DNA from: an uncultured delta proteobacterium | GTDB lineage: Bacteria > Myxococcota_A > Polyangia > Polyangiales > B10-G4 | Direction: 5' to 3' | Assembly (NCBI GenBank): GCA_963727445.1 | Contig: CAVSGI010000009.1 | Coordinates: 832,001 to 896,000 of the forward strand | Length of the DNA stretch: 64,000 bases | In this document: positions 9,611 to 53,894 of the stretch, one piece after another | Position numbering within the stretch: position 1 is the first letter of the stretch | How the letters are laid out: every line of letters begins with the position of its first letter | Program-made: the position numbers and the translations under genes | Notes under the pieces: generated by a model | What the model was told of the DNA's origin: nothing | What the model saw: the letters and a program-made list of their open reading frames with translations, nothing else | Database searches by the model: none

Positions 9611-11476
9611 TCAGATCAGCTCGGGAACGCAGACGCCGGCTTCGCAGAACTCGCCCCCCATGCACATGGTGTCGTCGCTGCACGGCTGGCGGTCGACGGT
9701 GGTGACCCATTGGCCGATGTGGTTGCCGCTGTCGATCTCCTGGAAGGGGAGCCAGAACATGGGCATCGCCATGTCTGCGCCGACGGGAGCGCTGGGATCG
9801 AAGGCGCCAACCCAGAGCTGCGCCTGGGTCCCGGCGGCCACGCGCAGGCCGTAGGCACGACGGCTCGACACGGTGAACCAGAAGAGCGGGTGGCTCTGGT
9901 GCATGTAGGTCGTCGGATCCCACTTGGGCCAGGAGTCGCCGTTCATCGAGGTCGAGCGATCGAGGCGCACCGGTGTTCCGCCGGCGATGGGCGCGATCCA
10001 CAGCTCGGCGTCGGGCGCATCGTAGCTGTTCTGGTTCGAGGGTGAGCGGTTGAAGAGCACGAAGCCGCCGTCGGGGGAGATGGTCGGGTAGTAGTTGTTC
10101 TGCCCGTCGAAGGCGACGACCTCCGGACCCGGCCCCCAGCTCGATCCATCGAAGATCATGGACTGGATGCTCGCGGCGTCGACGCCGGGCGCGCCGCAGA
10201 TGGTCCCGAAGCAGGGCGGCGTGGTCTGCGGCTTGGCGTAGACGAAGCGCGTCCCGTCGGGCGAGAAGTCGGGCATCGCGCCCCCAGTGACGATGGGATC
10301 GGTGATCGCCGCGCCGGTCGACGCGTCGCGGAGCACGATGTTCACTCCGTTGGAGGTGAGGATCTGGCTGTTGTCCGGCGAGAACGAGAAGAAGTTCGCC
10401 CCGCCGCCTCCGAACATCGATCCCTGCTGGTAGACGAGGGTCCGCGTGCCGGTCTCGAAGACCTTGTAGGGAGAGGGTGACGGGATGTCGAGGCCGACCG
10501 AGATGCGCGAGCCGTCGCGCGAGAGCACGTGGCAACCGACGCAGGTGCTGGCGCCGGCGCTACCAGCGTCGAGGTAGTTCTCCGCCGTCTGACCACGCCG
10601 CCCGAAGTCGTAGCGCTTGACGGCGCCGGCAGCGGCGTTCCAGTAGTAGAGGCCGCCGGTGACGTCCTCTTCGGCGAAGCCGATGGTCTGCTCCACGGAC
10701 GCGCCGACCGGCCCGCCCGAGCGGCTCGCGCCACGGATGCGGTAGCGCACCGGCGCCCGGCCGCGCTCGGACTCCGCGAGCGCCGTCCACACGTCCTCCT
10801 CGGGCAGGAACGCGCACCCGGCGCCGACCGCGGTGCAGCCGAAGTAGACCCGGAAGTCGCTCGCTTCGCCGATGAGCGAGAGCTCGAAGACCTCGTAGCC
10901 GGCGGGCATGAACTGCCATTCGAGCTCGTTCAGGTTCGGCGGCACCAGCACGCCGTCGATCGGGTAGACGATCTCGGGCGGCGTGCCGGTGTCGTCGGTG
11001 CCGGAGAAGAGAGACGCGTCGTCCATCGTCGCGCCGCTCCCGATGAAGATCCGCTCGAGGTGCACGGTCAGGTCGGTCGAGCCCATCGCGCCGCGCGCCA
11101 TCGCGAGCACGCGCGTGCGCCCGCCCTGGTCGGTGCCGGACTGGAACTGCGCCCCCGAAAAAGTGCCGAGCATCGTGTTCGTCACCCAGAACGATGCTTC
11201 CGCGGTCACGTCCTCCTCGGTGCCGTCGGGCTTCATGAGGTAGGCGTGGTAGTCGACCGTGGCCGGGACACCCATGCGGATCGACACCTCCGCGTTTTCG
11301 GGATCGAGCCGAAGCGTGCCGCCGCTGCTGCCGTCCGTGCCGCCATCGCCCCCGTCGCCGCCGATGCCGCCGTCGCCAGGATCTCTCTGGCGCGTGCATC
11401 CAGCCAGCACCACCAACGAGATCAACACGGCGCGCGCAAGCACCCCACGCGAGAAAACCGAGCTCCAATGACGCAT
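9611..11476 (-). CDS. TolB/PD40-like beta-propeller lipoprotein with a CxxCH motif
   Basis: LAGC lipobox, repeats FSPDNS/FSPDGT/ISPDGG/DSWPKW, CVGCH, Cys-rich C-terminus; start uncertain. Confidence 0.78.
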   Translation of the reverse strand: MRHWSSVFSRGVLARAVLISLVVLAGCTRQRDPGDGGIGGDGGDGGTDGSSGGTLRLDPENAEVSIRMGVPATVDYHAYLMKPDGTEEDVTAEASFWVTNTMLGTFSGAQFQSGTDQGGRTRVLAMARGAMGSTDLTVHLERIFIGSGATMDDASLFSGTDDTGTPPEIVYPIDGVLVPPNLNELEWQFMPAGYEVFELSLIGEASDFRVYFGCTAVGAGCAFLPEEDVWTALAESERGRAPVRYRIRGASRSGGPVGASVEQTIGFAEEDVTGGLYYWNAAAGAVKRYDFGRRGQTAENYLDAGSAGASTCVGCHVLSRDGSRISVGLDIPSPSPYKVFETGTRTLVYQQGSMFGGGGANFFSFSPDNSQILTSNGVNIVLRDASTGAAITDPIVTGGAMPDFSPDGTRFVYAKPQTTPPCFGTICGAPGVDAASIQSMIFDGSSWGPGPEVVAFDGQNNYYPTISPDGGFVLFNRSPSNQNSYDAPDAELWIAPIAGGTPVRLDRSTSMNGDSWPKWDPTTYMHQSHPLFWFTVSSRRAYGLRVAAGTQAQLWVGAFDPSAPVGADMAMPMFWLPFQEIDSGNHIGQWVTTVDRQPCSDDTMCMGGEFCEAGVCVPELI

Positions 11477-11509
11477 GCCACACCCCATGAACGAAAGAGC
11501 GGGGAGCAT

Positions 11510-11525
11510 AGCGCATCGCGTGCCT
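11510..11525 (-). promoter_or_regulatory. Possible sigma54 promoter
   Basis: Minus strand AGGCACGCGATGCGCT (GG-N10-GC, GGCACG) upstream of the propeller lipoprotein. Confidence 0.3.
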
Positions 11526-11551
11526 CGGCTCATGTGCCCTCCAGACCACCC

Positions 11552-12256
11552 TCACGGCACAGAACGAGAGACGTCTACCCGCAGATGTGAGGCCAGCTCG
11601 TCTCCGAGGCGCACCCGGTAGGCCGCCGACTGGGCGACGTCGGGATCGAGGTCCGCCATCCATCCGGCCACGTCGAGGCTCAGCGAAACGGCGAAGACGT
11701 CCTCTGCGGCGTCCAGGACTATGGGTGGATCGAGGGCGAGGCTCACGTCTCGGGTCGCTGAGCTGCTCAGCACAAAGCGCCTGTCCTCGCCATCGTCGAG
11801 GTACGTGACCTCGACGAGAAGAGCGAGCCCGTCCATGGGGTCGAGGCGCGGGTCGACCGCCCCGTTTTCATTGGGCGCGACGGTGACGCGCAAGCCGCAG
11901 TAGCTCGTCGCCGCTGGAGAGAGCAAGGCGAGGGGCACCGGCCCCGGCGCGAGCGCGTCGATGCGCTCGCTGCCGGTCCATGCGCGAGGCGTCGCGCCGT
12001 CATGCGCGCGCGCTGTTGAAGGCCCCAGCCATGAGACCGCGCTGGCGACAGTGCTCTCGCAGGGCAGGAGCTCGAGCTCCGTGAGGTTGATCTTCGCGCT
12101 CGCGGCACGTGGCGCGGTGCTCCCGGCGGCCACGGAGGAGGGAGAGCCGTCGAAGAAGAGCTCCACCAGCACGCCGGGCGATTCGCTGACGCAGCGCACG
12201 CTCACCGAGCAGACGAGGAGCAGGGCGCTGAGCCCGACCGACCGACGGCTAAACAT
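11552..12256 (-). CDS. Secreted hypothetical protein of the mbnPH cluster
   Basis: Signal peptide; overlaps the upstream gene by 8 nt; internal ARAHDG and YCG motifs. Confidence 0.7.
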   Translation of the reverse strand: MFSRRSVGLSALLLVCSVSVRCVSESPGVLVELFFDGSPSSVAAGSTAPRAASAKINLTELELLPCESTVASAVSWLGPSTARAHDGATPRAWTGSERIDALAPGPVPLALLSPAATSYCGLRVTVAPNENGAVDPRLDPMDGLALLVEVTYLDDGEDRRFVLSSSATRDVSLALDPPIVLDAAEDVFAVSLSLDVAGWMADLDPDVAQSAAYRVRLGDELASHLRVDVSRSVP

Positions 12257-13139
12257 CGATGGCTACCCCCGCGAGCGCCTGGACTCGCTCGCTCTGCTGG
12301 CCGCGGAGCGCGTCGATGACGGGCACCGTCACCGTCAGCCACAGAACGACGTCTTCGGCGGGGCTCGCGATCAGGCCGCCGCTCAGATACCCCACCACGC
12401 CACCGCTGTTCGGATCGTCGACGCCGGCGAGGGTGGTGCCCTCTTCGAAGCGAGCGCCCGCGCCCAGCCGGAACCCGAGGAACGTCCAGGGCTGGAGCTG
12501 CCCCACCAAGGTACTGCGCAGGTGCATCCCGACCTGGCTGTCGCCGCTCCCGCGGGTCGGCACGAAGACGAGCACCGAGCCGTGGAGGGACAGCGCGCCT
12601 TCGAAGAGGCTGCCCCCGACCGCGAAGGACGGATCCCAGGATCCCGTGCCGAGCTGGCGCTCGAGTGGAAGGGGGCCCGCGCCGCTCATCCGGATCGGCG
12701 CGGTGGGCAGCTCGAGGCCGACGTGGGCCCACACGAGCCGCGACGGAGCCCAGGTGCGATCGCGATAGAGGACGAAGCGCGCGCGGAGCGTGGTGTCGCC
12801 TGGACCGACCACGGATTCCCTCGAGAGGTTGGGTTGCGTCGTCTGTCTGAGGACGATCGGGACGCGAAGCCCGAGCGTCAGCCAGGGCACCGGCGCGTGG
12901 CTCAGAGCCACAGTGAGCCGTTCCTCGCGCGAGACGACCTCGTCCGCTCCGGGAGTGCCCGAGTGCGCTTCCAGGTGGCGGACCTGGGCCGACACGCGGG
13001 TCCGTCCGGCGTAGGGCTGCTCTACGCCCATCACGTTCAGCGTCGGATCGCCGACCGCACACGTCGCGCACGCAGCCGCACGCCGCGCCGTCAGGACGAC
13101 AGCGATGAAGACCAGGCCGGAGATGGCGAGCCTTCGCAT
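12249..13139 (-). CDS. Putative outer-membrane beta-barrel transporter with N-terminal CxxC
   Basis: Signal peptide then ACATCAVGDP; GPGD and LELPT..QLGTGSWD motifs (MetA-pathway/SphA-like barrels); alternating beta pattern. Confidence 0.7.
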   Translation of the reverse strand: MRRLAISGLVFIAVVLTARRAAACATCAVGDPTLNVMGVEQPYAGRTRVSAQVRHLEAHSGTPGADEVVSREERLTVALSHAPVPWLTLGLRVPIVLRQTTQPNLSRESVVGPGDTTLRARFVLYRDRTWAPSRLVWAHVGLELPTAPIRMSGAGPLPLERQLGTGSWDPSFAVGGSLFEGALSLHGSVLVFVPTRGSGDSQVGMHLRSTLVGQLQPWTFLGFRLGAGARFEEGTTLAGVDDPNSGGVVGYLSGGLIASPAEDVVLWLTVTVPVIDALRGQQSERVQALAGVAIDV

Positions 13140-13192
13140 CGGCCGAGGCTTAGTGGGACGTGCGAGAGCTGTACATGAGGCAAATCGTCGCT

Positions 13193-13207
13193 GCGACGAT
13201 ATGCCGC
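13193..13207. promoter_or_regulatory. RegA/RegR/PrrA-type binding box
   Basis: GCGAC-GATAT-GCCGC in the intergenic gap upstream of the barrel gene; fits GCGNC-N5-GNCGC. Confidence 0.65.
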
Positions 13208-13220
13208 ACCTGTCGAGAGG

Positions 13221-14468
13221 CTACGGGGCGGCTTCGAAGGGATCGGAGAAGCGCGGATCGGTCACGAACTCGTCGTCCGTGAGGCTGCGCAGGAACGCGA
13301 GCATGTCGGCCTTCTCGTCGTCGGCCATCACGAAGCCGTGGACGAAGATGCTCTTGTTCGGGTTGTCGCGTCCGTCCCCGACGTAGGGGCCATCCGTCAC
13401 GTTGCGGCCGCCGGCGGCGTAGGTGTCGAGCACCTCTTCGAGCGTGGCGATGCTCCCGTCGTGCATGTAGGGCGCGGTGAGCGCGATGTTGCGCAAGGTC
13501 GGAGGCTTGAACCGACCCATGTCCGCCGGATCGCCGGTCGACTCGTAGAGGCCGGTGTTCTCGGTGGGATAGGCGCCACGCCCATCGACGTTGTAGAGGC
13601 CCGTGTTGAAGAACACCGCCTCGTCGAAGACGATGCCCTCGTGGTCGACGGAGGACGAGAAGTTGAACGATCCGTGGCAGTGGAAGCAGTCGAAGGTCTC
13701 GCCGAAGAAGAGCTCGGCGCCGCGCAGGGCCGCTTCGCTCATCGCCGAAGTCTCACCGTCGCGCGTATAGCGATCGTAGGCGGAGTTGCCGCTGATCAGC
13801 GTGCGCTCGAAGGCGCCGATGGCGCGCACCACGTTGGCCACGGTGAAGGGATCCGCGTCGTCTGGGAACGCACGCGGGAAGAGGTCCTGGTACATGGTCT
13901 CGGCGCGCAGGCGCTCGAGCAGCAGGTCTTCCTTCCCCGCCAGGCCGAGCTCGATGATCGGCGATTCTCCGAACATCGGCAGGAGCGCCTGGTCCTCGAG
14001 CGTCCGCACCGTCGGATTCGCCCAGGTGAGCGTCGCCTGGTACGCGACGTTCGTCAGCGACATCGAGCTCCGCGGGTGAGTCATCCCCGTCGAGCCCAGG
14101 GCATGCGCCAGCCCGTCGGTGAACGCTTTGTCCTGCTGGTGGCACGAGGCGCACGAGTAGGTCTGGTTGTCCGAGAGCCGGGTGTCGTAGAAGAGGTAGC
14201 GGCCGAGCTCGACCTTCACGGCGCTCATGGGGTTGTCTTCCGGCACACGGGGAACGGGAAAGTCCGGCGGGAGGTCCCAGGTCCACTCCTCCATCCCGCC
14301 GTCACCGCCGCCGTCAGCGTCGCCCGCGTCGCCCGCGTCCCCCGCGTCGGCCATCCCATCAGGCGTGGCATCGGTGGTCGCGTCGGGCCCCATGGGCCCG
14401 TCGTCCCCGCATCCCGCGAAGAGCGAGGTGACGAGGGCGATGAACGCGAGTGCCACGGGGTGAGTCAC
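13221..14468 (-). CDS. mbnH: MbnH-family di-heme enzyme (MauG/CcP-like) lipoprotein
   Basis: CASCH and CFHCH heme motifs, PEDNPMS..KVELGRYLFYD, TLTWANP, PTLRNIALTAPYMHDGS; FAGC lipobox; next to mbnP. Confidence 0.9.
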   Translation of the reverse strand: MTHPVALAFIALVTSLFAGCGDDGPMGPDATTDATPDGMADAGDAGDAGDADGGGDGGMEEWTWDLPPDFPVPRVPEDNPMSAVKVELGRYLFYDTRLSDNQTYSCASCHQQDKAFTDGLAHALGSTGMTHPRSSMSLTNVAYQATLTWANPTVRTLEDQALLPMFGESPIIELGLAGKEDLLLERLRAETMYQDLFPRAFPDDADPFTVANVVRAIGAFERTLISGNSAYDRYTRDGETSAMSEAALRGAELFFGETFDCFHCHGSFNFSSSVDHEGIVFDEAVFFNTGLYNVDGRGAYPTENTGLYESTGDPADMGRFKPPTLRNIALTAPYMHDGSIATLEEVLDTYAAGGRNVTDGPYVGDGRDNPNKSIFVHGFVMADDEKADMLAFLRSLTDDEFVTDPRFSDPFEAAP

Positions 14469-14482
14469 GGACGATGAGGGGT

Positions 14483-15472
14483 CTACTCGAGGTGGAAGAA
14501 AGACTGCGCCGTCGAACCGGCGACGCCCGTCGCGTAGTCGAGGCCTAGCTTGGGAAAGACCGGAAGGCAATCGGTCTCGTCCGTGGGGAAGGACTGGCAG
14601 CCCGGAGGCGTGCCCATGGTGTTGGCGGTGAGGTCCGCGTCGGACACCAGCTCGGCGAGGTCCGCCACGATCACGCTGGTGTCGATGTCGAAGCCGTCGA
14701 GACTGACCTCCATGCGGTTCGGCCGCATGCACTCGGCGGTCGGAGGCTCGGTGGGCGCGCCGCTGGTGCACATGGTGCTGCCCAGGTGCATGTTGTAGCC
14801 GCCGCTGCCCACGACGAGATCGATGCGAAGAAATTTGTATCCGCCCTGCCAGTTCCAGAACATCGACGTGATGTTGAGCGGGGTCTCGGCGGTCGCGACG
14901 TCGACGTGGTTCAGCTCGAAGGGAACACCGACGACGAAACGAACGCCGGTGTACTCGCCCGGAGCGACGGTGCCGACGACCTCGCTGTTCAACGCGGAGT
15001 TGCCCGACATACACGCCGAGGTGCCGTCTTCGAAGTCGAGGAGCGACACGTCCGCGCTCTGGAACATACCGTCAGGCGTGAGCGCGACGGGAACCTCGTC
15101 GTCCGTGCTGGTCACGAGCCGCACGTCGGAGACGTAGAAGCGGAAGTCCCCGCCGGTGGCTTCCGCCGAGGTCGTGCCGAGCCCGCTGTAGGTCGTTCCG
15201 CAGCCGAAGTCCTCGCTTCCCACCCTCGCCGCGAACTGGAGCGTGACCGGCATGTCGGTGGAGGTGTCGGCTGCGGAGTCCGTGGCGCTGTCCATCGTGC
15301 CGCTGTCGCCCGTGCTGGTATCGCCGCTGCTGGAATCAGCGGGACCGGTGTCGGCGGCGCTGTCCATCACACCGCTATCGGTCGCGCCGCCATCCGTTGC
15401 GCCGTCGTCGCCACACGCGGTGGTGAAGACGAGAAGGAGCCCTGTCACCGAAGCCAAGCTTGTCGATCTCAT
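14483..15472 (-). CDS. mbnP: MbnP-family copper-binding lipoprotein
   Basis: DFRFYVSDV, LLDFEDG, GVPFELNH, MFWNWQGGYKFLRID (WxW), HLGSTMC..C..PNR; TACGDD lipobox. Confidence 0.9.
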   Translation of the reverse strand: MRSTSLASVTGLLLVFTTACGDDGATDGGATDSGVMDSAADTGPADSSSGDTSTGDSGTMDSATDSAADTSTDMPVTLQFAARVGSEDFGCGTTYSGLGTTSAEATGGDFRFYVSDVRLVTSTDDEVPVALTPDGMFQSADVSLLDFEDGTSACMSGNSALNSEVVGTVAPGEYTGVRFVVGVPFELNHVDVATAETPLNITSMFWNWQGGYKFLRIDLVVGSGGYNMHLGSTMCTSGAPTEPPTAECMRPNRMEVSLDGFDIDTSVIVADLAELVSDADLTANTMGTPPGCQSFPTDETDCLPVFPKLGLDYATGVAGSTAQSFFHLE

Positions 15473-15530
15473 GTCTCTCTCCGTTTCCCCGAACGAGCGA
15501 ATGCTAGTGCGAAACAGGCGGCCCGCGCCT

Positions 15531-15545
15531 GTGGTCAATTGTCGC
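15531..15545. promoter_or_regulatory. RegA/RegR/PrrA-type binding box
   Basis: Minus strand GCGAC-AATT-GACCAC (15 bp) in the gap between regA and mbnP. Confidence 0.6.
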
Positions 15546-15575
15546 ACCGAATCGAGGTCGGGCTCCAGCTGTCCC

Positions 15576-16124
15576 TCATCGCGGGGTGGGATGCTTCGCG
15601 AGCTTTCGCTGGAGCGAGCGGCGGTGGATGCCGAGGAGACGCGCCGCATGAGTGATGTTTCCATCGCATTCAGCGAGAACGCGGTTGATGTGCTCCCATT
15701 CGACGCGCGCCAGCGTCGGGACGCTCTCGGGACTCCGGGATTCTGCCGCGCCTTCGCCGTCTGCGCCCAGCTCGAACGCCGCGAGGATCTCCTCCACCGT
15801 GGCTGGCTTCGTCAGATAGTGGACCGCGCCGCGCCTGACGGCGTCGAGAGCCGTGGCGATCGAACCGAACCCGGTGAGGACCACCGTACGGGTGGTCGCG
15901 TCGATGGCGGCGAAATCCGCGACCACGTCGAGACCTGAGCCGCCCGGCATGCGCAGATCGACCAGGGCGAGCTCGGGGCTGTCCTGCTCGGCCGACATGC
16001 GCGCCTCTTCGCGACTGGCGGCGAGCCGCACGTCGTAGCCACGATCCTCCAGCGCGCGACCGAGGCGCGACCGAAACGTGCTGTCGTCGTCGACGATCAG
16101 GATGCTCGGATTCGCGTCGTTCAT
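15576..16124 (-). CDS. regA: RegA/PrrA/ActR-family response regulator
   Basis: Receiver domain ILIVDDD..VDLRMP..YLTKP; Fis HTH TLARVEWEHINRVL..GNITHAARLLGIHRRSLQRKL. Confidence 0.93.
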   Translation of the reverse strand: MNDANPSILIVDDDSTFRSRLGRALEDRGYDVRLAASREEARMSAEQDSPELALVDLRMPGGSGLDVVADFAAIDATTRTVVLTGFGSIATALDAVRRGAVHYLTKPATVEEILAAFELGADGEGAAESRSPESVPTLARVEWEHINRVLAECDGNITHAARLLGIHRRSLQRKLAKHPTPR

Positions 16125-17410
16125 CGCGGGATCTCCACGCTCGCCGTGGTTCCTCGGCCCGGCCCCGAGGTCAAGTCGAATCGGCCACCGAGCTCCTCGG
16201 TCACGATGCACGCCAGAAAGAGGCCGAGCCCCATTCCTTGACCTTCCGGTTTCGTCGAGAAGAAAGGCTCGAGCGCCCGTTCGCGGATCTCAGCGGTCAT
16301 TCCCGACCCCTGGTCGCGTACGGTGAAGAGCACGGCGTCCTCCGTGGCCTCGACTTCCAGGCGGACGCGTTCCTCCGCCCCTGACGCCTCGAACGCGTTG
16401 TCGACGAGGTTGCCGAGGGCCGAGATGAACGCTCGCTTGGGAACGAAAAGCTCCGGCAGCCCCGGGGAGACGCGTAGCGCGAGCCGCTGCTGCTGGTCGT
16501 CGGGGAGGCGCGCCCTGACCTCATCGACGAGCACCTGCGCGTCGACCGGCACCGGTGCCTCACCTCGCCCTTCGCCTCTCTTTCGGCCGAGTTGGTCGAG
16601 TATCGCGCGGCACCGCTCCACCTCGCCGAGGATCAGCTTCGCGTCGGAGGCGATCTCGCCACCCTCTGTGAGCTCCTCTGCGCGCCGCTGGAGCTCGCCC
16701 GCCACGATCGTGATCGTGTTCAGGGGTGTGGACATCTCGTGCGCGGCGCCGGCGGCGAGGGTCGTCAACGACGCGAGGCGCTCGCTGCGTGTCGCGCGGG
16801 CTCGGGCCTCGGCGAGCTCGCGGTCGCGGCTACCCAATGCAGCCGTCAGGCGTGTGCCCAGGTACGCCACGATGCCGGCGGTGATCGCAAAGGCGAGGAG
16901 CATTCCGTAGAGGTGCGTCGCGTAACCGTTCGAGGTGCCGTGGTGGCTCGTGTGATGCACGTGCCCGCCCATGGCGCTCGGCTCGGCGGGGGTGATCACG
17001 AAGAGCAGCCCGAAACACAGCACCGTCACCGCTGCCAGGCTCCACGCCCATCGGTTGCCGAGGACCACCGATGCCAGCGCGACGTAGACGAGGAACAGGA
17101 CGGTGAACGGGTTCTCTGGACCTCCGGAGAGCGCAAGACTGGCGGAGAGCGCCAAGGTGTCCACCAGGAGCAGGGCTCCGAGCCCCCGCGCTTCGCCTCT
17201 CAGGCGACGCCGCGCGACGACGAACACGAAGTTGGTCGCGACGACGTAGCCCGCGAACGCGAGCATGGGTACGATCTTCAGCCCTGGATCGATCAACAGC
17301 GTCACCGCAGCGATGAGGACGGCTCCGCCGATACCGAGTGCCCAACGCGCACGGACGAACCAGTCGAGGGCGATCGCTTCGGGGCTCGTCACGCGGGGAG
17401 TGTGGTCCAA
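16121..17410 (-). CDS. regB: RegB/PrrB/ActS-family sensor histidine kinase
   Basis: GGPENPF quinone-site motif, H-box AAHEMSTPL, redox Cys ERCR, HATPase N/G boxes; multi-TM N-terminus. Confidence 0.92.
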   Translation of the reverse strand: MDHTPRVTSPEAIALDWFVRARWALGIGGAVLIAAVTLLIDPGLKIVPMLAFAGYVVATNFVFVVARRRLRGEARGLGALLLVDTLALSASLALSGGPENPFTVLFLVYVALASVVLGNRWAWSLAAVTVLCFGLLFVITPAEPSAMGGHVHHTSHHGTSNGYATHLYGMLLAFAITAGIVAYLGTRLTAALGSRDRELAEARARATRSERLASLTTLAAGAAHEMSTPLNTITIVAGELQRRAEELTEGGEIASDAKLILGEVERCRAILDQLGRKRGEGRGEAPVPVDAQVLVDEVRARLPDDQQQRLALRVSPGLPELFVPKRAFISALGNLVDNAFEASGAEERVRLEVEATEDAVLFTVRDQGSGMTAEIRERALEPFFSTKPEGQGMGLGLFLACIVTEELGGRFDLTSGPGRGTTASVEIPR

Positions 17411-22280: not shown

Positions 22281-23102
22281 ATGAACCGAGCATTCGCTCT
22301 CGCGCTGCTCGTCGTCTCGATGCTCGCGCCCACCGTCGCGTCTGCACACTTCAAGCTGGTCGCACCCGCCTGCTACTCGGAGCAGGACGCGCTCGGCACA
22401 CCTCTGAAGAGCGCACCCTGTGGCCAGGCCGATCCCGGCAATCCGGTGGTCGAGACCGGTGACGTGACGATGCTGGTTCAGGGCGGGATGCTCACAGTCA
22501 CCATCGAAGAGACCATCACCCATCCCGGTCACTACCGGATCTCCATCGCCCCCGACATGGCGTCGCTCCCCGACAATCCTCCGGTCACGCCGGGCTCGAC
22601 CGCTTGCGGCTCGACGGTGATCGATCCCGACCCGAGCCTTCCGGTGCTCGCGGACGGCGTCTTCATGCACACCATGTCCTTCAGCGGACCGCAAACCATC
22701 GAAATCCCGCTCCCCCCGGACTTCACCTGCGACAACTGCGTGGTGCAGGTGGCCGAGTTCATGTCCAACCACGGGCTCAACGATCCTGGCGGCTGCTTCT
22801 ATCATCACTGCGCGAACGTGACGGTCACGCCCGCTGCTGGCGACGCCGGCACCCCGGACGGCGGCGGCATGTCCGATGGCGGCGGTATGAGCGACGGAGG
22901 CGGGACGCCGGACGGCAGCACGGCGGACGGCAGCACGGTCCCCGACGGATCGGCCATGTCCGACGGCTCCACCACCATGACCAGCGACTCGGGATGCGGA
23001 TGCCGGGTCGGCGCTCCCGCGCGCCGCGCTCACGGATTCGCCTTCGGCGCGTTCCTGCTCGCGCTGGCGCTCGGCCGCGCCCTCGTCAGACGGCGGGGCT
23101 GA
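22281..23102 (+). CDS. Polysaccharide monooxygenase-like (SCE4755-type) protein with MYXO-CTERM anchor
   Basis: GAGG RBS; signal ends ASA then His; HPGHYRIS, CDNCVVQ, YHHCAN; C-terminal GCGCRVG-TM-RRR. Confidence 0.8.
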   Translation: MNRAFALALLVVSMLAPTVASAHFKLVAPACYSEQDALGTPLKSAPCGQADPGNPVVETGDVTMLVQGGMLTVTIEETITHPGHYRISIAPDMASLPDNPPVTPGSTACGSTVIDPDPSLPVLADGVFMHTMSFSGPQTIEIPLPPDFTCDNCVVQVAEFMSNHGLNDPGGCFYHHCANVTVTPAAGDAGTPDGGGMSDGGGMSDGGGTPDGSTADGSTVPDGSAMSDGSTTMTSDSGCGCRVGAPARRAHGFAFGAFLLALALGRALVRRRG

Positions 23103-23552: not shown

Positions 23553-26500
23553 TCACGGCCCAGCCCCCGCCTCCAACTCCTCGAAAAGCGCGCGCGCACC
23601 GGCGTCTTCCGGATCGATGAAGAGCACGCGGCCGAGGGCGGCGCGCGCTGCGTCTTCGTCTCCGCGACCACGTTCGGCGACCGCCAGATCGAAGAGGAGG
23701 TCGGTGTCGTAGGGGTGGTAGGCGAGCCCGGCGCGGAGGACGCTGGCCGCCTCCTCGGGGCGGCGACGCCCCAGGTTCAGCCGTCCCAGGAGCACACTCG
23801 CTTCGCGGCTGCGCGGGTCGAGGCGGAGCGCCTCTCGGAGCTCCGATTCCGGGCTCATGTTTCTGCGGGGCTTTGCCATCAGCGCGAGGGCGAGCCCGGT
23901 GTGCGCTTCGGCCAGCGAGCCGTCGGCGTCGATGGCGCGTTCGAAGGCGAAGACGGCGCGATCCGTGAGCTCCTGCGCCACGAGGGCGCGTCCGAGATCG
24001 ATTTGGATGAGCGGATCGTTCGGGTCGCGCCGCAGCGCGGCGTGGTAGGCGTCGCTCGCGCCTTCGTAGTCGCCCTCGGCGGCGCGGACCAGACCGAGGT
24101 GCAGCCAGAGCTTGGGATCGTCGGCATGTCCCGTCGCCTCCTCGAGGAAGGTCTCCGCGTCGCCCAGGGCGCCGTGCAAGAGGAGCCCGGCCGCGACCTC
24201 GAGGAGGCGTTCGGGATCGTCGCGGTAGCGTTCGCCGAGCGCGTGGTAGTAGGGAAGGCCTTCACGCATCGCCGCCTCGAACATGGGCGGCTTCGCGCAC
24301 CCTTCGCAGATCTCGGCGGCGCGCGCGAGGTGCCCGGCCAAGAGGAGCCCCTGAGCAGCCCATCGCCGATGCATCTCGTCGCGCAGCGGCGCCATGGCGG
24401 CTGCATCGAGGGGGGCCTCCTCCGGCGCGAAGGCTTCGAGGAGACGGTCTGGCGTCATGGGCGCGGCGTCGGTGTAGTGTGTGACGAACTGCACCAGCGG
24501 GTGGTCGTCGGTGTTGCGCGGCAGGCCGCGGGCCCATGCGTCGAGGGTCGCGGGGCCTGCGTGCAGGCATTCGAGCACCTCCGTCGTGGTGCCGAGGCCC
24601 CAGGGCGCGAGCGCCTCGCGCACCGCGGGCGCGGCGAGGCGCGCCGCGATCCGGGCGGGATCGATCGGTGCGCCCTCGGTGGTGGCGACCAGAAGCGAGT
24701 ACGCCGATTGGCCGTAGGGCTCGAAGCCCACGTTGTTCCAGAGGGTGGCCTCTTCGAAGGTGTCGGCGAAGGTGCCCACCAGGATCCGGGAATTCGTCCA
24801 CGGACAGCCCGTGCAGCGGTAGCCACTGCACGAGCACGCCGCCCGGCGCGAGACGTGCCCGCGCCGTCTCGTATAGCTCGCGGGTGTAGAGGATCCAGCT
24901 GTCCACCGCTCTCGGATGCGTGGAGTCGAGCACGATCACGTCGTAGCGCCGCTCCGCGGTACGCAGGTGCGCGCGCCCGTCGTCGATCACCAGCGACACC
25001 CGCGGGTCGTCCAGCACGTCGCCGTTGAGATCGGAGAAAGCGCGTGCGCCGTATCGCACCGCGGGCTCGAGATCGACGATGGTGATCCGCTCCACGTCCT
25101 GGTGCGCGGCGACCGCGCCCGCGGCCAGTCCACCGCCGAGGCAGATGACGGCCACGTCGCGCGGCGCCGGGTGAAGAAGCAAGCCGAGGTGGCCGAGGAG
25201 CATGAAGCTCTGATCGTGAACCAGCCGCGTCGTCACCTCGTTGATGCCGTTGACGAAGATCTGCCGCTCGCCATTGATCTGGTTCCTGGCGACGGCGACG
25301 GTCGCGCTGCGTCCTTCCTCGTAGACGACGAGGGTCTGATGGGCCGGGCCGATCTTCCTGGAGAGGATCCGTCGCGGCAGCTCGGCGGGGAGGAGCAGCC
25401 AGGCGACGACGAAGGCGACGAGAGCGCCCGTCGCGAGGCGCGGGCCGCGCCGATACCCGAGGGTGACGGCCGCGACCGTGGGGGCGAGCGCGAGAAGCCC
25501 GGTGGTCCACTGGATCGTCGCGAAGGGGATCAGGACGAGCGATGTCACGAGCGGTCCGAGGAGCGTGCCCGCCGTGTTCGCTGCCAGTACTTCGGCCGAC
25601 GCCCTGCCTCCGCCCTCTCCCGGATGGCGCGCGATCAGGGCCGGCAAGAGCGCGCCTGCCACGGCCGTGGGCGGGACGATGGTGGCGAGGGCGAAGATCC
25701 CTTGAAGCGCGATCCCCCGCTCATGGCTTCGGCTGAGCGGCAGAGAGCTCTCGACGCCGAAGAGGTCGAGGCCGTCTTCGAGATAGAGGCGTCCTACCAG
25801 GGCGAGGCAGAGGATCGCCGCCACGCCGAGGGCGCCGAAGAGCGTGAGCAGGACGCCCTCGCGCACTCGGATCCGATCGGGCAACGCCCGAAGCACGCCC
25901 GCGCCGGTGGCGAGCCCCACCAGCACCGACGCGAGCATCGCGCTGAACGCGTGGACGTCGTGACCGAAGACGAGGAGGAAGAGCCGCGTCCACACCGTCT
26001 CGAGGCCCAGCACCACGAAGCCGCACACGAAGGCGAGCACCAGAATGGTACGGCGGCTCTCGGGGCGCGGGCGTGTGTCCGGGTCCCGCGTCGTCGCTGG
26101 CGCGCGCTCGGGATTCACGAACGCGAGCGCGAGCGCCACGGCGCCGACGCCGAGGTCGATGAAGGCCGCGAGCTGGTTCGTGGCCCGAACGCCCCAAGCG
26201 CCCAGCAGGAAGTAGCCCGCGATGGCGGAGCCGAGCGCAGCGCCGGCGGTGTTGAGCGCGTAGATGGCGCTCGCCGCGCGTCCCACGCGGTCCCCTGCAT
26301 CGCCCAGCCGCACTTCCGCTGCCCGCACCAGGGCGGGGAGCGTCGCGCCGAGCGCGAGGGAGGGGATGAGGACAACCGTCGTCGCGATGCCGAGGCGAAC
26401 GACGAACGAGCTCCAGCCCGGACCGAGCGCCGAGAGGATGGGGAGTGACCAGGTCTCGGCCGAAGCGGCGAGGGTGGGGACGGCCAGGGCGATCCCCCCG

Positions 26501-26748
26501 AGAAGCAGCTCGAGCCCGGCGTAGAGACGCAAGGGGTCGACGCGATCGGCCCAGCGCCCGACGAGCAGCGCACCACCGCCCATCCCGCCCATCACCGCCG
26601 CGAGGACGGCGGCGGTGGCAAACGACGCATTGCCCAGGACCACCGCGAGGAGGCGGTGCCACACGACCTCGTAGGTGAGCCCGGCGAGCCCCGACGCGAA
26701 GCAGAGAGACAAGAGCAGTGCCCGCGCCACGCGCGCTCGTCGCGTCAT
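23553..26748 (-). CDS. Fused multi-TM/spermidine synthase-like protein with C-terminal TPRs, frameshifted near 24790
   Basis: FASGLAGLTYEVVW.R, YALNTAGA, ICLGGG, DDGR, YDVIVLD, QWLPLH; TPR-like tail in the second frame. Confidence 0.85.
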
Positions 26749-26767
26749 CGGACCAGGCACGACTCAC

Positions 26768-42015: not shown

Positions 42016-43826
42016 TCAGAGTGAATCCCGGAACGCCCTCAGCCGCTCTCGCTCGTCCCCATCGAGCGCGTCGCCGGCGAGGGCTTCGTCCACCACGTGC
42101 CGTGACTCGGCGCCGTAGACCGTGGTCAAGAGGCGTTGGGCCTGCCGGCCGACGTGGCCGTGGCCGGAGAGGAGCGCGAGGTTTCGGCTCATCAGCGGGT
42201 CGTTCTTCACGTTGGGGTCGAGGCTGTAGGCGCGCTCGTAGCGCTCGATGGCGTCAGGTCGCCAGCCGCGCGAGTAGTACCCGTGGCCGAGCAGGAGAAA
42301 GACCCGCGCGTCGTCGCGGTTGCGCTGGGCGTAGCGGCGCAGCGTTCGGTGAGCCGAGTTGCTCATCTCGCGGCCGCTGCGGATGGCGCGGCGGATCGAA
42401 GCGAGAGTCCGCGGGACGGGCGGCTCCCAGGGATTGCCGTTCGCCTCGACGGCCGGTGCGACGGTTGGGACCGGCTCCTCGGCCGTGTCCTGCTCTTCCT
42501 CACCCGCCAGCGCTTCCGCCACACGGGCGATGGCGCCCTCGAACCCGTCGTCCTCCTCGGCGGTCTCTTCCCCGGCCTCCGCGGACCGGGTGACGGTGCC
42601 GTCGTCGCCATGCGCTGCAGGCGGGGGACGGCCGGCGGCGTGACCGGCGCTTCGTCCCCGCCGTTCGCCATCGGCGCCGCGGTCGCTTCGTCCTCGCCGA
42701 CGAGGTTGATCACGAAGAGCGCCGCGACCGTCAGCCCCGCGAGCACGGTCGCCGCCGCACCCAGCGCGATCAGCGACAGGCCGCGGCGCGACGGGCGCTT
42801 CGCCACGTCGGTGGCGGCCGCCGAGCTCTGCCCGGTGTCGGCGATGGCCGTCGGCGCGTGCGCGGGATCCGAGGCCGCGTGGGGAGCCGGCCGTCCCGCC
42901 GCGGTGGGCGCGCGGCTGGGCCGCGCCATGTCGCCTTTCGGCACCGGCGTCCCGGTGACGAGGGTCTCGAGTCGGCAGAACGCCTCCAGCATCTCGCCTG
43001 CGTTCGCGAACCGCTCGCCGGCCTCCTTGGCGGTGGCCTTTTCGAGGAAGGCGACGAGCGCCGGTGATGCCGACAGGCCCGGGCAGACGCGGTCGATTCG
43101 AAGGCAGGGGCGTCACGAGGTGGTGTCGGATCAAGTCGACCGGCTCCCCGCGATAGGGCCGCTCTCCGGTGAGCATCTCGAAGAGGACGATTCCGGCGCT
43201 GTAGACGTCGCTCGGCGCCTCACCCCCCTGACCGGTCCCCTGCTCCGGGGACATGTAGGCCGGTGTTCCCACGATGGTGCCGGTCTTGGTCAGCGCCGGT
43301 CCCGCGCGACCCACGCGCTCCCCCGCGACGAACTTGGCGAGACCGAAGTCGAGGAGCTTCACGTGCACCGGCGCGTCGCTCATGCGCTGCAGGAACACGT
43401 TGGCCGGTTTGAGGTCGCGATGGGCCAGGCCCTTGCTGTGAGCGAAGGAGAGCGCGCGAAGCGTCTGCTCGAAGATGAGCCGAACGCGCCCGGGATCGAG
43501 GGGCGCGCCCTGCGCGATCACCTCGTCGAGGGCTTCCCCTCGAGGAGCTCCATCACCAGGTAGGGCACGTTGTCGACGAGGCCATAGTCGGTGACCGTGA
43601 CGATGTGCGGGTGGGCCATCGCGGCGTGGTTCTTGGCCTCGCGCTCGAAGCGCAGGCGCAGCTCCTCGCTCTCGCCGAACTCGGGCAGCAGCACCTTGAC
43701 CGCCACCGGGCGTTCGAGCTTGAGGTGGGTCGCGCGATAGACCGTCCCCATGCCGCCCTCGCCAATCGGCTCGAGCAGCCGGTAGCGACCGTCGAGAACA
43801 CTGCCTGGTTCGTACGACGTCCTCAC
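42016..43826 (-). CDS. Membrane Ser/Thr protein kinase with TPR-like C-terminus; 3 frameshifts (about 43535, 43098, 42625)
   Basis: IGEGGMGTVY, VAVK, HRDLKPAN, DFGLA, GTPAYMSPE spread over frames; TM segment then TPR-like region. Confidence 0.88.
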
Positions 43827-43891
43827 GTGCGACGGATTCTATCCCATGGCCGGCGGGGCGGATTCGAACGCGATACCCCGGGCCTCTCGGC

Positions 43892-45098
43892 CTACGGAGT
43901 CACGGTGGTCACGCCCACGGTGCAGGTGGCATCCACGTCCGGATCCCCACCCTCCGGTCAGGACCGTGTAGGTGCCGCTCGTCGGGCAATCGAACTCCGC
44001 GTAGCTGCAGTAGTCGCCGCAGCCGTCATCGTCGTTGGCCAGCGCGGTGCGCGAGCCGCAGGGCTCGGTGCCCTCACAGACGCGGAGCACGGTGTCGCCG
44101 ACGCAGGTGCCGAGCATGCAGCCCATCCCGCAACCGACGCCGATCCGCTCGCCGGGCGTACAGGTCCGGCCCGCCGTCCCTTCGATGGCGAAGCCGCAGT
44201 TGCGCCACACGCCGGTCTGGATGCCTTCGCAGGTCAGGGTGGGGTCCGGATCGGGCATGTCGGGCGCGATGGTCACCGGGATCTCGGCGACGTTGTTGGT
44301 GTAGTCGAGCTCGGTGAGGATCATCGTCTCGTTGAGCGCGAGGCGCAGCGTGTAGTCGCCCGGTGCCACGTCGGTGACGTCGACCCACTGACAGTCGAGG
44401 CTCGCGTCGTAGTTGTCGGCCCATCCCCGCTGGATGCCCTGATTGTCGCAATCGTACTGTTCGGTGCGCCGCACCGTCGGGTCGTCGGTGATGTACTGCT
44501 CGGAGTCGAGGAGGCAGAACGCCTGCTTGTGCCCGAAGCCCACCTCGGTCCCGCTCGCGTCCCTGAGGGTGTAGTCGGCGTAGCCGTTGAAGTGGTAGTG
44601 CATGTGACAGTCCGAGTAGACGAAGGAGGGGTTGTCGTCGCTCGGCGCGCCCAGGTGCAGGTCCCCGGTGCCGATGTTGGGTGTCACGGTGTCGAAGCGG
44701 AGCAGCCGGCGCCAACCCGACTCGCTCACGCAGCCTTCGACCACCGCACAGTGATCGGGCTCGAAGTAGGCCCACTCCACGTGGGCGGTCTCCATGGCGC
44801 GGTCGGGGAGGACGGTCAGGTCGGGCAGCGGGCATTCACCCTCGCTGGTCGCGGTCACGCACTCCCATCCGAGGCCCGCGGGGCAACACAGATCGCCAGC
44901 GGTGCCGCAGTCGGCGCCGCAGGGGCTGGCTTCGGGTGAGGTGTCGGCGCTGGTGTCGGGGCTGCCGGTGTCGGGCGGCGCGGTGTCGAGCGCCGCATCC
45001 ATGCCCGAATCCATCGGTGGCGCATCATCGTCTCCGCAGGCGCCGAGGGTCAGTACCAGGAGACCGATCGCCATGGGGGCGAGATGCTTCTTCTTCAC
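43892..45098 (-). CDS. Lysyl oxidase family lipoprotein with C-terminal PPC-like domain; probable frameshift near 43940
   Basis: GACGDD lipobox; RRLLRFD, CHMHYHF, GHKQAFCL, QGIQRGWADNY..LDCQWVDVTDV, ELDYTNN. Confidence 0.9.
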
Positions 45099-45205
45099 GT
45101 CCCGAGGATCCTCCCAAAGGCGGGCCTCGCGCAAGCGGATCGATGCGCCCGTGAACCCGATGGGCGGGATCGGGGCGGCGCTTCGGGTGTACGCTCCGAG
45201 GCCCG

Positions 45206-52435: not shown

Positions 52436-53894
52436 ATGAGCGGCGCGCTCTTCCCGAACGTCAGCCCCGATCGTCCGGCGCTCAGCGTCGAAGATCGGAC
52501 GCTGACGCACGGTGAGCTGGCGCGCGCTCTGTCGCGTCACTTCGAACGGCTCTCGTCGGCGGGAGTGTCGCCCGGTGACCGTGTCGCGGTCTGGACCGAG
52601 CGCACCCTCGAGACGCCGGTAGCCCTCCTCGGCAATGCCGCGGCGGGCATCGTGAGCGTCCCGCTCAACGCGTCCCTGGGCGAGCGCGAGCTCGCCCACA
52701 TCCTTCGTCACGCGAAGCCCAAGCTGGTGGTGGCCACCAGCCCCGCGAGCGCTTCGCGCACCCCCGATCATTCGGTGGTCGAGGCGACGGTCGACACCGC
52801 GGGCGAGCCTCGGCTCTCCGTGCGGGATGCCGACGACGCGCCTCTACTGATCCTCTACACCTCCGGCACCACCGGCCCGCCCAAGGGCGCCGTGCTCACG
52901 GCGAAGAACGCCGCCGCGAACATCGACGGCCTGGCCGCCGCCTGGGCCTGGACGCCACGAGACACCGTGGTGCACGCCCTGCCGCTCTTCCACGTCCACG
53001 GGCTGATCCTCGGGCTCTTCGGGAGCCGTCGCGTCGGGGGTCATCTCCACTGGGTGCCGCGCTTTTCGCCGGAGAGGGTCGCCGGGGCTCTCTCGGCAGG
53101 CGGGACGATGCTCTTCGCGGTTCCCACGATGTACCACCGACTGGTGGAAGCCGCGGAGGCCGACGCTTCGATCGCGTCGACGCTGGCGGGCGCGCGCCTG
53201 CTCATCAGCGGGTCGGCGGGTCTGCCCGTCCGCGAGCATCGGCGCATGGAGGCGATCACCGGCCGGAAGGTCATCGAGCGCTATGGCCTCACCGAAACCC
53301 TGATCAACACGGCCGTTCATCACGACGCGCCGAGGCCGGGCTACGTGGGCCCGCCGGTTCCGGGCGTCCAGCTCCGGCTCGTCGACGACGCGCGTCAGCC
53401 GATGGACGCGCGAGACGACGCGACCATCGGAGAGGTGGCGGTGCGCGGGCCGTCGGTCTTCGCGGGCTACCTCGACGACCCCGAGGCCACCGCCAAGGTG
53501 CGGGACGACGACGGCTGGTTCTACACCGGAGACCTCGCCACCATGACCGAGGACGGCGTCCTGCGCATCGTCGGGCGGCGCGCCACCGATTCTGATCAAG
53601 ACCGGCGGCTTCAAGGTCGGCGCTGGCGAGGTGGAGGCGGCGCTCCTCGAGGAGGTGGGGGTGGCCGAGGCAGCCGTCACCGGCGTGCCCGATGAGGATC
53701 TCGGGCAGCGCATCGTGGCGTACGTGGTGCCGCGCGACGCGGCCGCGCCTCCCGACGCCGACGCGCTGATCCGTGCCGTCGCCAATGCCCTCGCACCCCA
53801 CAAGCGTCCCCGGCAGATCCGCTTCGTCGAGGCGCTGCCGCGCAACGCGATGGGGAAGGTGCAGAAGAAGCGCCTCGGAGAGCTCGACCCTTGA
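52436..53894 (+). CDS. Acyl-CoA synthetase (MatB-like), frameshifted near 53590
   Basis: YTSGTTGPPKG, HALPLFHVHGL, ERYGLTE, TGD; continues DLIKTGGFKV..LPRNAMGKVQK in another frame. Confidence 0.9.

Follow-up and report, generated by a model that had tools for sequence, protein, structure and literature searches.

What does an MbnP/MbnH pair do outside the methanotrophs, and how might a Gram-negative cell take up copper without a chalkophore? Both questions are raised by six co-oriented genes at positions 11,552 to 17,410 of a 64,000-nucleotide stretch of DNA from an uncultured delta proteobacterium (assembly GCA_963727445.1, contig CAVSGI010000009.1, positions 832,001 to 896,000 of the forward strand), the whole of which is called the window here. 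A preliminary description had presented them as a self-contained copper module driven by a dedicated RegBA pair. The analysis reported here points to a RegA-activated envelope system in which copper would be captured through a small barrel with an N-terminal CxxC motif and transferred to metal-binding lipoproteins (the partner lipoprotein encoded beside the barrel, MbnPH, and YtkA-type proteins), a reading that we regard as somewhat probable. The sequences themselves support the gene identities, a linkage conserved although gene order is shuffled, a constant spacing between a palindrome and a -10-like element, and the recurrence of that palindrome at a detached YtkA/cytochrome cluster; copper handling and lipoprotein cleavage are what we infer. 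The module names a candidate channel, candidate carriers, and a regulator together with its DNA sites, and because all six genes are present in the cultured Labilithrix luteola DSM 27648 (L135), the question becomes testable.

Gene content of the locus

All six open reading frames (ORFs) are encoded on the minus strand and follow the order originally proposed: regB-like, regA-like, mbnP, mbnH, barrel and accessory. The genes and predicted control elements are as follows.

16121..17410, minus strand: RegB-type membrane sensor kinase, start TTG at 17410 or GTG at 17392; best match NF033792, 197 bits, cut-off 350
15576..16124, minus strand: RegA-type response regulator, receiver and Fis-type helix-turn-helix (HTH); NF033791, 176 bits, cut-off 250
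15530..15546: RegA-type palindrome in the predicted mbnPH promoter; 20.1 bits, rank 3 in the genome; TAnnnT element 24 nt downstream, at 15501-15506
14483..15472, minus strand: MbnP lipoprotein; TIGR04052, 272 bits, cut-off 140; PF20243; 7L6G, E 2e-36
13221..14468, minus strand: MbnH diheme MauG-like lipoprotein with two CxxCH motifs; TIGR04039, 511 bits, cut-off 363
13176..13208: tandem RegA-type palindromes before the barrel gene; 13192-13208, 22.1 bits, rank 2 in the genome; 13176-13192, 11.8 bits
13147-13152: imperfect -10-like element of the barrel promoter
12249..13139, minus strand: predicted 12-stranded outer-membrane beta-barrel of COG4313/FapF fold; predicted mature N-terminus starts with CxxC
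11552..12256, minus strand: accessory lipoprotein of an unnamed family, predicted beta-sandwich; its start overlaps the barrel stop

Shadow ORFs overlying the module, which have high GC and match no families, were rejected. A downstream gene for a 640-aa lipoprotein (9611-11533) was kept out of the module because it was found in none of 20 compared loci and has several paralogues. The 9.47-Mb genome, which is 86% complete, contains one mbnP, one MbnH gene over the cut-off and one RegA-type gene.

Family models upheld the assignment of MbnP and MbnH. In the alignment of MbnP with 7L6G, the tryptophans W206 and W208 of the retained WNW motif, the preceding M204 and the upstream H189 are in register, and the adjacent MbnH keeps both of its CxxCH motifs. 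The N-termini of both proteins, read from the sequence without a predictor, are lipoprotein-type signals ending in Cys, in line with the proposed lipid anchoring. MbnP is reported to bind copper via His, Met and a kynurenine made by MbnH (review, PMC11951088), and in a 2026 study deletion of mbnP or mbnH left methanobactin ring formation unaffected and the product Cu-bound (PMC13729199). MbnP exceeds its cut-off in 22 of 41 genomes of the same order. Some genomes hold at least two mbnP/mbnH copies side by side (L131 and L077/L078), one of them with a divergent MbnP, and a second MauG-like diheme gene of the present genome, below the MbnH cut-off and without mbnP, lies at G000:C20:534941-535885.

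The preliminary description had stressed that mbnABC and TonB-dependent receptor genes are missing from the window. For mbnB this extends to the genome as sampled, in which TIGR04159 gave nothing over its cut-off (four weak matches, the strongest at 45 of the 325 bits needed); no separate search was made for mbnA or mbnC. TonB-receptor barrels (PF00593) are missing from the whole contig and number six elsewhere in the genome. The missing methanobactin genes are not surprising, because the mbnPH pair is described as conserved far beyond methanobactin producers (Kenney and Rosenzweig, PMC3621798); mbnPH without methanobactin genes is an ordinary, already described arrangement. The gene context given in the same source links mbnPH to uptake receptors. 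The pair resembles that of Methylosinus trichosporium OB3b (7L6G; TIGR04052/TIGR04039; GenProp0940) in that both families score over cut-off, the WxW, His and Met residues are conserved and the genes are adjacent. The pair of strain OB3b partners a TonB-dependent receptor, whereas the myxobacterial pair partners a predicted 12-stranded COG4313 barrel, is preceded by a RegA-type site, and has alongside it a second lipoprotein, which may be related in fold but has no WxW.

Linkage in other myxobacteria

Synteny was surveyed from two anchors, namely the best 80 of 381 confirmed barrel loci, and the 4-kb neighbourhoods of regA in 30 other genomes of the order that carry it. The accessory gene was found at 54 of the 80 barrel loci, regA or regB at 52, mbnP or mbnH at 45, and all of these at 34. 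Around regA, a COG4313-type barrel occurred in 17 of 30 genomes (16 by profiles, one by Pfam), the accessory gene in eight and mbnP in five, and any module gene, including those for YtkA-like or His-rich lipoproteins, in 22. The barrel, not mbnPH, is therefore the most constant neighbour of regA, and the association of regBA with the module, which had been proposed as a check on its meaning, is conserved among relatives.

Among the best 80 barrel loci, 42 hold both regBA and mbnPH, in 14 different order strings; 31 of these 42 share a single order and come mostly from close relatives, so that the locus counts overstate independence, while the remaining 11 have different orders, divergent layouts among them. 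The module-bearing loci span Myxococcales, Polyangia, Sandaracinaceae and Labilithrix. The persistence of linkage through reshuffling of gene order speaks for a functional unit. At three loci (L053:7553-7957, L055:5827-6246 and L068:5971-6291), genes beside regBA or mbnP encode small lipoproteins that have repeated Cys-His motifs and no Pfam match; two of these genes have a RegA-type site.

The regulator and its predicted targets

The ActS/PrrB/RegB and ActR/PrrA/RegA models are the best matches of the kinase and the regulator by a wide margin, with scores below the curated cut-offs of both. The kinase keeps the GGxxNPF quinone motif, the H-box and a Cys after the H-box, and carries a His-rich stretch ahead of its last membrane helix; the regulator, the only RegA-type copy found in the genome, has a Cys directly before its Fis-type HTH. 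The GGxxNPF motif, the Cys after the H-box and the Cys before the HTH are features described for Rhodobacter RegB/RegA (PMC3000548, PMC9147068), and group 1 regBA genes are reported to be co-transcribed with the copper chaperone gene senC (PMC9147068).

Both intergenic gaps of the module carry the palindrome TGCGAC-N5-GYCGCA. This predicted site matches CTGCGAC-N5-GTCGCAG, the site of SpdR, a Caulobacter homologue of RegA, that was tested by electrophoretic mobility shift assay (PMC4830024). Whatever the gene order, the palindrome stands ahead of the leading gene of a target operon. Counted at 14 bits or more, with locus L084 left out, it precedes 44 of 46 leading barrel genes at loci with linked regBA, and 7 of 11 mbnP genes in leading position at such loci. 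Where regBA is not linked, 8 of 22 leading barrels have it, and among 132 internal genes only one does; the positive counts are partly circular because the matrix was trained on the same upstream regions. Comparison of 53 distinct barrel promoters showed a T-A-n-n-n-T element 24 nt downstream of the site (T, A and T in 46, 48 and 45 of 53), and the start codon often lies about 7 nt beyond it. This fixed spacing suggests that the activator is centred near -44 and that the transcript is largely leaderless.

For scanning the target genome, the matrix was trained without it. The three highest-ranking sites were C12:40501, window position 13192 and window position 15530, in that order. Genome-wide, four sites reached 19 bits or more, against 0 to 21 in column-permuted controls; because this total is no higher than in the controls, only rank and position count as evidence. 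When a -10 element was also required, five sites remained in the genome, against 0 to 4 in controls, and at 19 bits or more two remained (the mbnP promoter and C12:40501), against none in 10 controls; the barrel promoter drops out on account of its imperfect -10 element. Loci of relatives held 53 sites in 611 kb, against 0 to 5 in 8 permuted controls, a count in which some of the loci duplicate training loci or each other. These sites precede barrel, accessory, mbnP, YtkA-like and His-rich lipoprotein genes, and also the gene for cd1 nitrite reductase, ccmH and regA itself.

The top-ranked site, C12:40501, sits between two divergent genes for YtkA-like lipoproteins (PF13115, one over and one under the cut-off), flanked by c-type cytochrome genes. 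The whole cluster (G000:C12:39492-42907, L194) encodes the two lipoproteins, two small cytochromes c and one multiheme cytochrome, and homologues of the YtkA-like genes lie in or beside the module at six other loci (L134, L139, L141, L147, L037 and L054). YtkA/CtaK has been implicated in CuA assembly (PMC13344008). With this third predicted target cluster on another contig, the module is not self-contained. The claim that RegBA is dedicated to it survives in part: RegA-type sites stand in both promoters and the predicted regulon is narrow; the pair is also the only RegBA of the genome, and sites in relatives extend to cd1 nitrite reductase, ccmH and regA. With the matrix used, which was built from promoters of the module and could overlook weak sites, three heme-copper oxidase loci and the SCO gene had no site above 11.5 bits nearby. 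Overall, the regulon is predicted to be narrow and directed at the envelope, to include more than copper-related genes, and to reach outside the window. A possible fourth target (G000:C13:169791-171670, L195) has a weak, 12.9-bit site with a -10 element before genes for a CxxCH lipoprotein and a plastocyanin-like lipoprotein, the latter just below the PF00127 cut-off.

RegB-SenC-RegA of Rhodobacter and SpdS/SpdR of Caulobacter share with this system the sensor motifs, the regulator architecture, the DNA site and a linkage to copper-chaperone genes. The myxobacterial proteins differ in falling under the curated cut-offs, in lacking an adjoining senC (the single SCO gene is on C21), and in having no strong site at oxidase loci, their predicted targets being envelope lipoproteins and the barrel. 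SpdR is likewise reported to have few direct targets (PMC4830024).

The barrel and the accessory lipoprotein

The small CxxC barrel of the preliminary description was borne out by a 12-stranded model (pLDDT 84.6), for which the best Foldseek matches were FapF (E 1e-14) and Pput2725 (4RL8, E 1e-12), with TM of about 0.7. The protein itself has no PF13557 match; the domain is found in weak homologues and in 11-18% of the members of Atlas clusters. Of 81 matched frames, 71 have A-C-x-x-C after the signal peptide; the remaining 10 are cut short, carry a frameshift or belong to distant barrels from outside the myxobacteria. Other regBA-adjacent barrels start with CC or HH in place of CxxC, and these alternatives together suggest that the N-terminus binds metal, either within the channel or at it. 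The predicted barrel has its 12 strands in common with the COG4313/SphA/FapF channels (Pput2725, 4RL8; FapF, 5O65; PF13557), and is unlike them in having no Pfam match of its own, a conserved N-terminal CxxC and an overlapping gene for a partner lipoprotein. A search of titles and abstract openings on COG4313 and copper found no copper role for such barrels.

The partner, or accessory, protein has no Pfam or NCBIfam match and no conserved WxW. A homology search with the single sequence found only itself; a profile search found a family of 1,611 representatives at E 0.001 and 749 at 1e-10, present in 45 of 121 genomes sampled from the phylum. In an alignment of 147 of 150 representatives (three short ones dropped; about 23% identity), C66, H85 and C120 are invariant, the lipobox Cys is kept in 146, A82 in 139 and A84 in 143. 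The stretch from C66 to H85 is 5 to 53 residues long and amphipathic (moment 0.44, compared with 0.32 when shuffled), and closes with Pro or Gly, then A-x-A, then His. Pro or Gly followed by A-x-A is how a type I signal peptide ends. At 30 phylum-wide loci the motif is A-x-A-H in 21, A-x-A followed by Gly or Asp and then His in six, and neither in three; a constant A-x-A with a shifting His is more in keeping with cleavage than with a structural role. The internal motif is signal-peptidase-like, and cleavage may unmask an N-terminal His copper site. A more distant type of lipoprotein (L193:1405-3687) has A-x-A-H without the preceding Cys, which suggests that the internal motif is not limited to this family.

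CopC and YcnI bind Cu(II) at N-terminal His sites (PMC12362106). The accessory family shares with these histidine-brace proteins a conserved His right after an A-x-A motif of signal-peptidase type; unlike theirs, its motif is internal, about 63 residues past the lipobox Cys, in a protein of another fold, and its cleavage is putative. No literature on internal or cryptic signal peptides of this kind was found among titles and abstract openings.

The accessory model (pLDDT 88.7) is a beta-sandwich with the C66-H85 stretch as a lower-confidence insertion. MbnP (7L6G) was the top Foldseek match, a weak one (E 2.7e-3, TM 0.35), and in a second search MbnP (Z 8.2, rmsd 4.2, 175 residues aligned) tied with a Bacteroides fimbrial protein (Z 7.7, 109 aligned). 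Profile-profile comparison of the family with MbnP gave a probability of 27%, and the family profile against a single MbnP sequence was not significant. Prediction of a complex between barrel and lipoprotein gave 0.35, compared with 0.00 for the best control, which supports such a contact weakly; at least 74% of contacts agreed between runs and partner pLDDT was at least 75. Of 157 solved pairs, 116 reached the mark used, as did 2 of 215 mismatched ones; at 0.60 or below, those reaching it numbered only 18 of the 157 solved pairs and both mismatches.

Proposed copper capture and alternative explanations

A sequence of events can be proposed for the RegA-activated copper system. RegB would be switched on as a kinase when the quinone pool is reduced, as from low oxygen or copper-starved oxidases, and its His-rich loop may add direct metal sensing. 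Phosphorylated RegA would bind about 44 nt before the predicted transcription start and activate mbnPH, the barrel and lipoprotein genes, and the YtkA cluster. The barrel would bind copper by its N-terminal CxxC and admit it without TonB; the metal would then pass to His85 of the partner lipoprotein, which may first be cut internally at A-x-A. MbnH would oxidise a Trp of the MbnP WNW motif to kynurenine, completing a second copper site, and YtkA-type lipoproteins could hand copper to envelope cuproenzymes. If true, this would give COG4313 barrels their first metal-type class of substrate and RegBA a narrow, envelope-directed role.

A more specific proposal is possible though doubtful: TonB-independent, RegBA-controlled copper uptake with a lipoprotein family (the 749 representatives at E <=1e-10) that is matured by a second, internal signal-peptidase cut after A-x-A, a disulfide joining the pieces to the lipid anchor and the freed N-terminal His forming a histidine-brace site fed by the barrel CxxC. 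Were the internal cut real, it would be a means of building lipid-anchored histidine-brace sites that escapes annotation. The parts are members of known families or resemble them; neither their wiring nor the lipoprotein family turned up among the titles and abstract openings covered by the literature search.

Several points weigh against copper capture under RegA. Besides the total of strong sites, which shows no excess over controls, the circular or duplicated part of the promoter counts, the predominance of one gene order and the scores of the regulators below their cut-offs, no module gene was found at 8 of the 30 regA loci (two of them near or on short contig ends). The COG4313/FapF barrels with solved structures transport organic molecules or amyloid subunits rather than metals, and myxobacteria use menaquinone. 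The quinone site of RegB was demonstrated with ubiquinone (PMC3000548). The genes for cd1 nitrite reductase and ccmH are not copper genes, and with the c-type cytochromes of the C12 cluster they indicate that the theme may be envelope redox biogenesis.

Taken to its end, this last point yields a regulon without copper uptake, in which RegA induces envelope cytochromes, a peroxidase-like enzyme and thiol proteins at low oxygen, the CxxC barrel serves a redox or other small substrate, and any copper binding is incidental. The quinone and Cys redox motifs kept in RegB and the sites before cd1 nitrite reductase, ccmH and cytochrome c lipoprotein genes agree with it; most site-bearing or linked genes, however, encode predicted metal-ligand proteins (MbnP, YtkA-like and His-rich lipoproteins, a weak cupredoxin target), and the oxidase and SCO loci have no site above the level given, so we think this explanation unlikely. 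That the barrel's top fold match is FapF would also suit an outward role, in which it exports a processed lipoprotein fragment or excess metal while MbnP and the lipoprotein buffer copper at the surface. The tie of fimbrial proteins with MbnP as fold matches of the lipoprotein, and the weakly predicted contact of the latter with the barrel, can be read in the same way. Such detoxification or surface display is nevertheless quite unlikely, given that no copper efflux gene recurs among the scanned neighbours (one RND pair lies beside mbnP, in G023) and that the published context ties mbnPH to uptake receptors (PMC3621798). Finally, zinc, nickel, cobalt or iron could be the cargo of barrel and lipoprotein, with only MbnPH and YtkA concerned with copper. 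CxxC, CC and HH starts are not copper-specific, and a gene for a siderophore-interacting protein lies downstream at one locus (L048); predicted co-regulation with MbnPH and YtkA-like genes, and the N-terminal His as a typical Cu(II) ligand (PMC12362106), speak for copper instead and make another metal very unlikely.

Other features of the window

A possible copper client is encoded on the plus strand 5 kb from regB (22281-23102), by a gene resembling SCE4755-family polysaccharide monooxygenases (NF043005, 108 bits, cut-off 75). Its product has a His after the signal peptide, and the gene has no RegA-type site of 13 bits or more. A lipoprotein with a lysyl oxidase domain (43839-45134, minus strand; PF01186, E 2e-35) is another likely cuproenzyme.

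At 23553-26760 on the minus strand, a membrane ORF, which we take to resemble a spermidine-synthase-type protein, seems to continue in another frame into a TPR-bearing ORF, possibly through a frameshift or an assembly error. The window also holds a short kinase-like fragment (43518-43826, minus strand) and an acyl-CoA synthetase-like gene with its tail in a second frame (52436-53894, plus strand).

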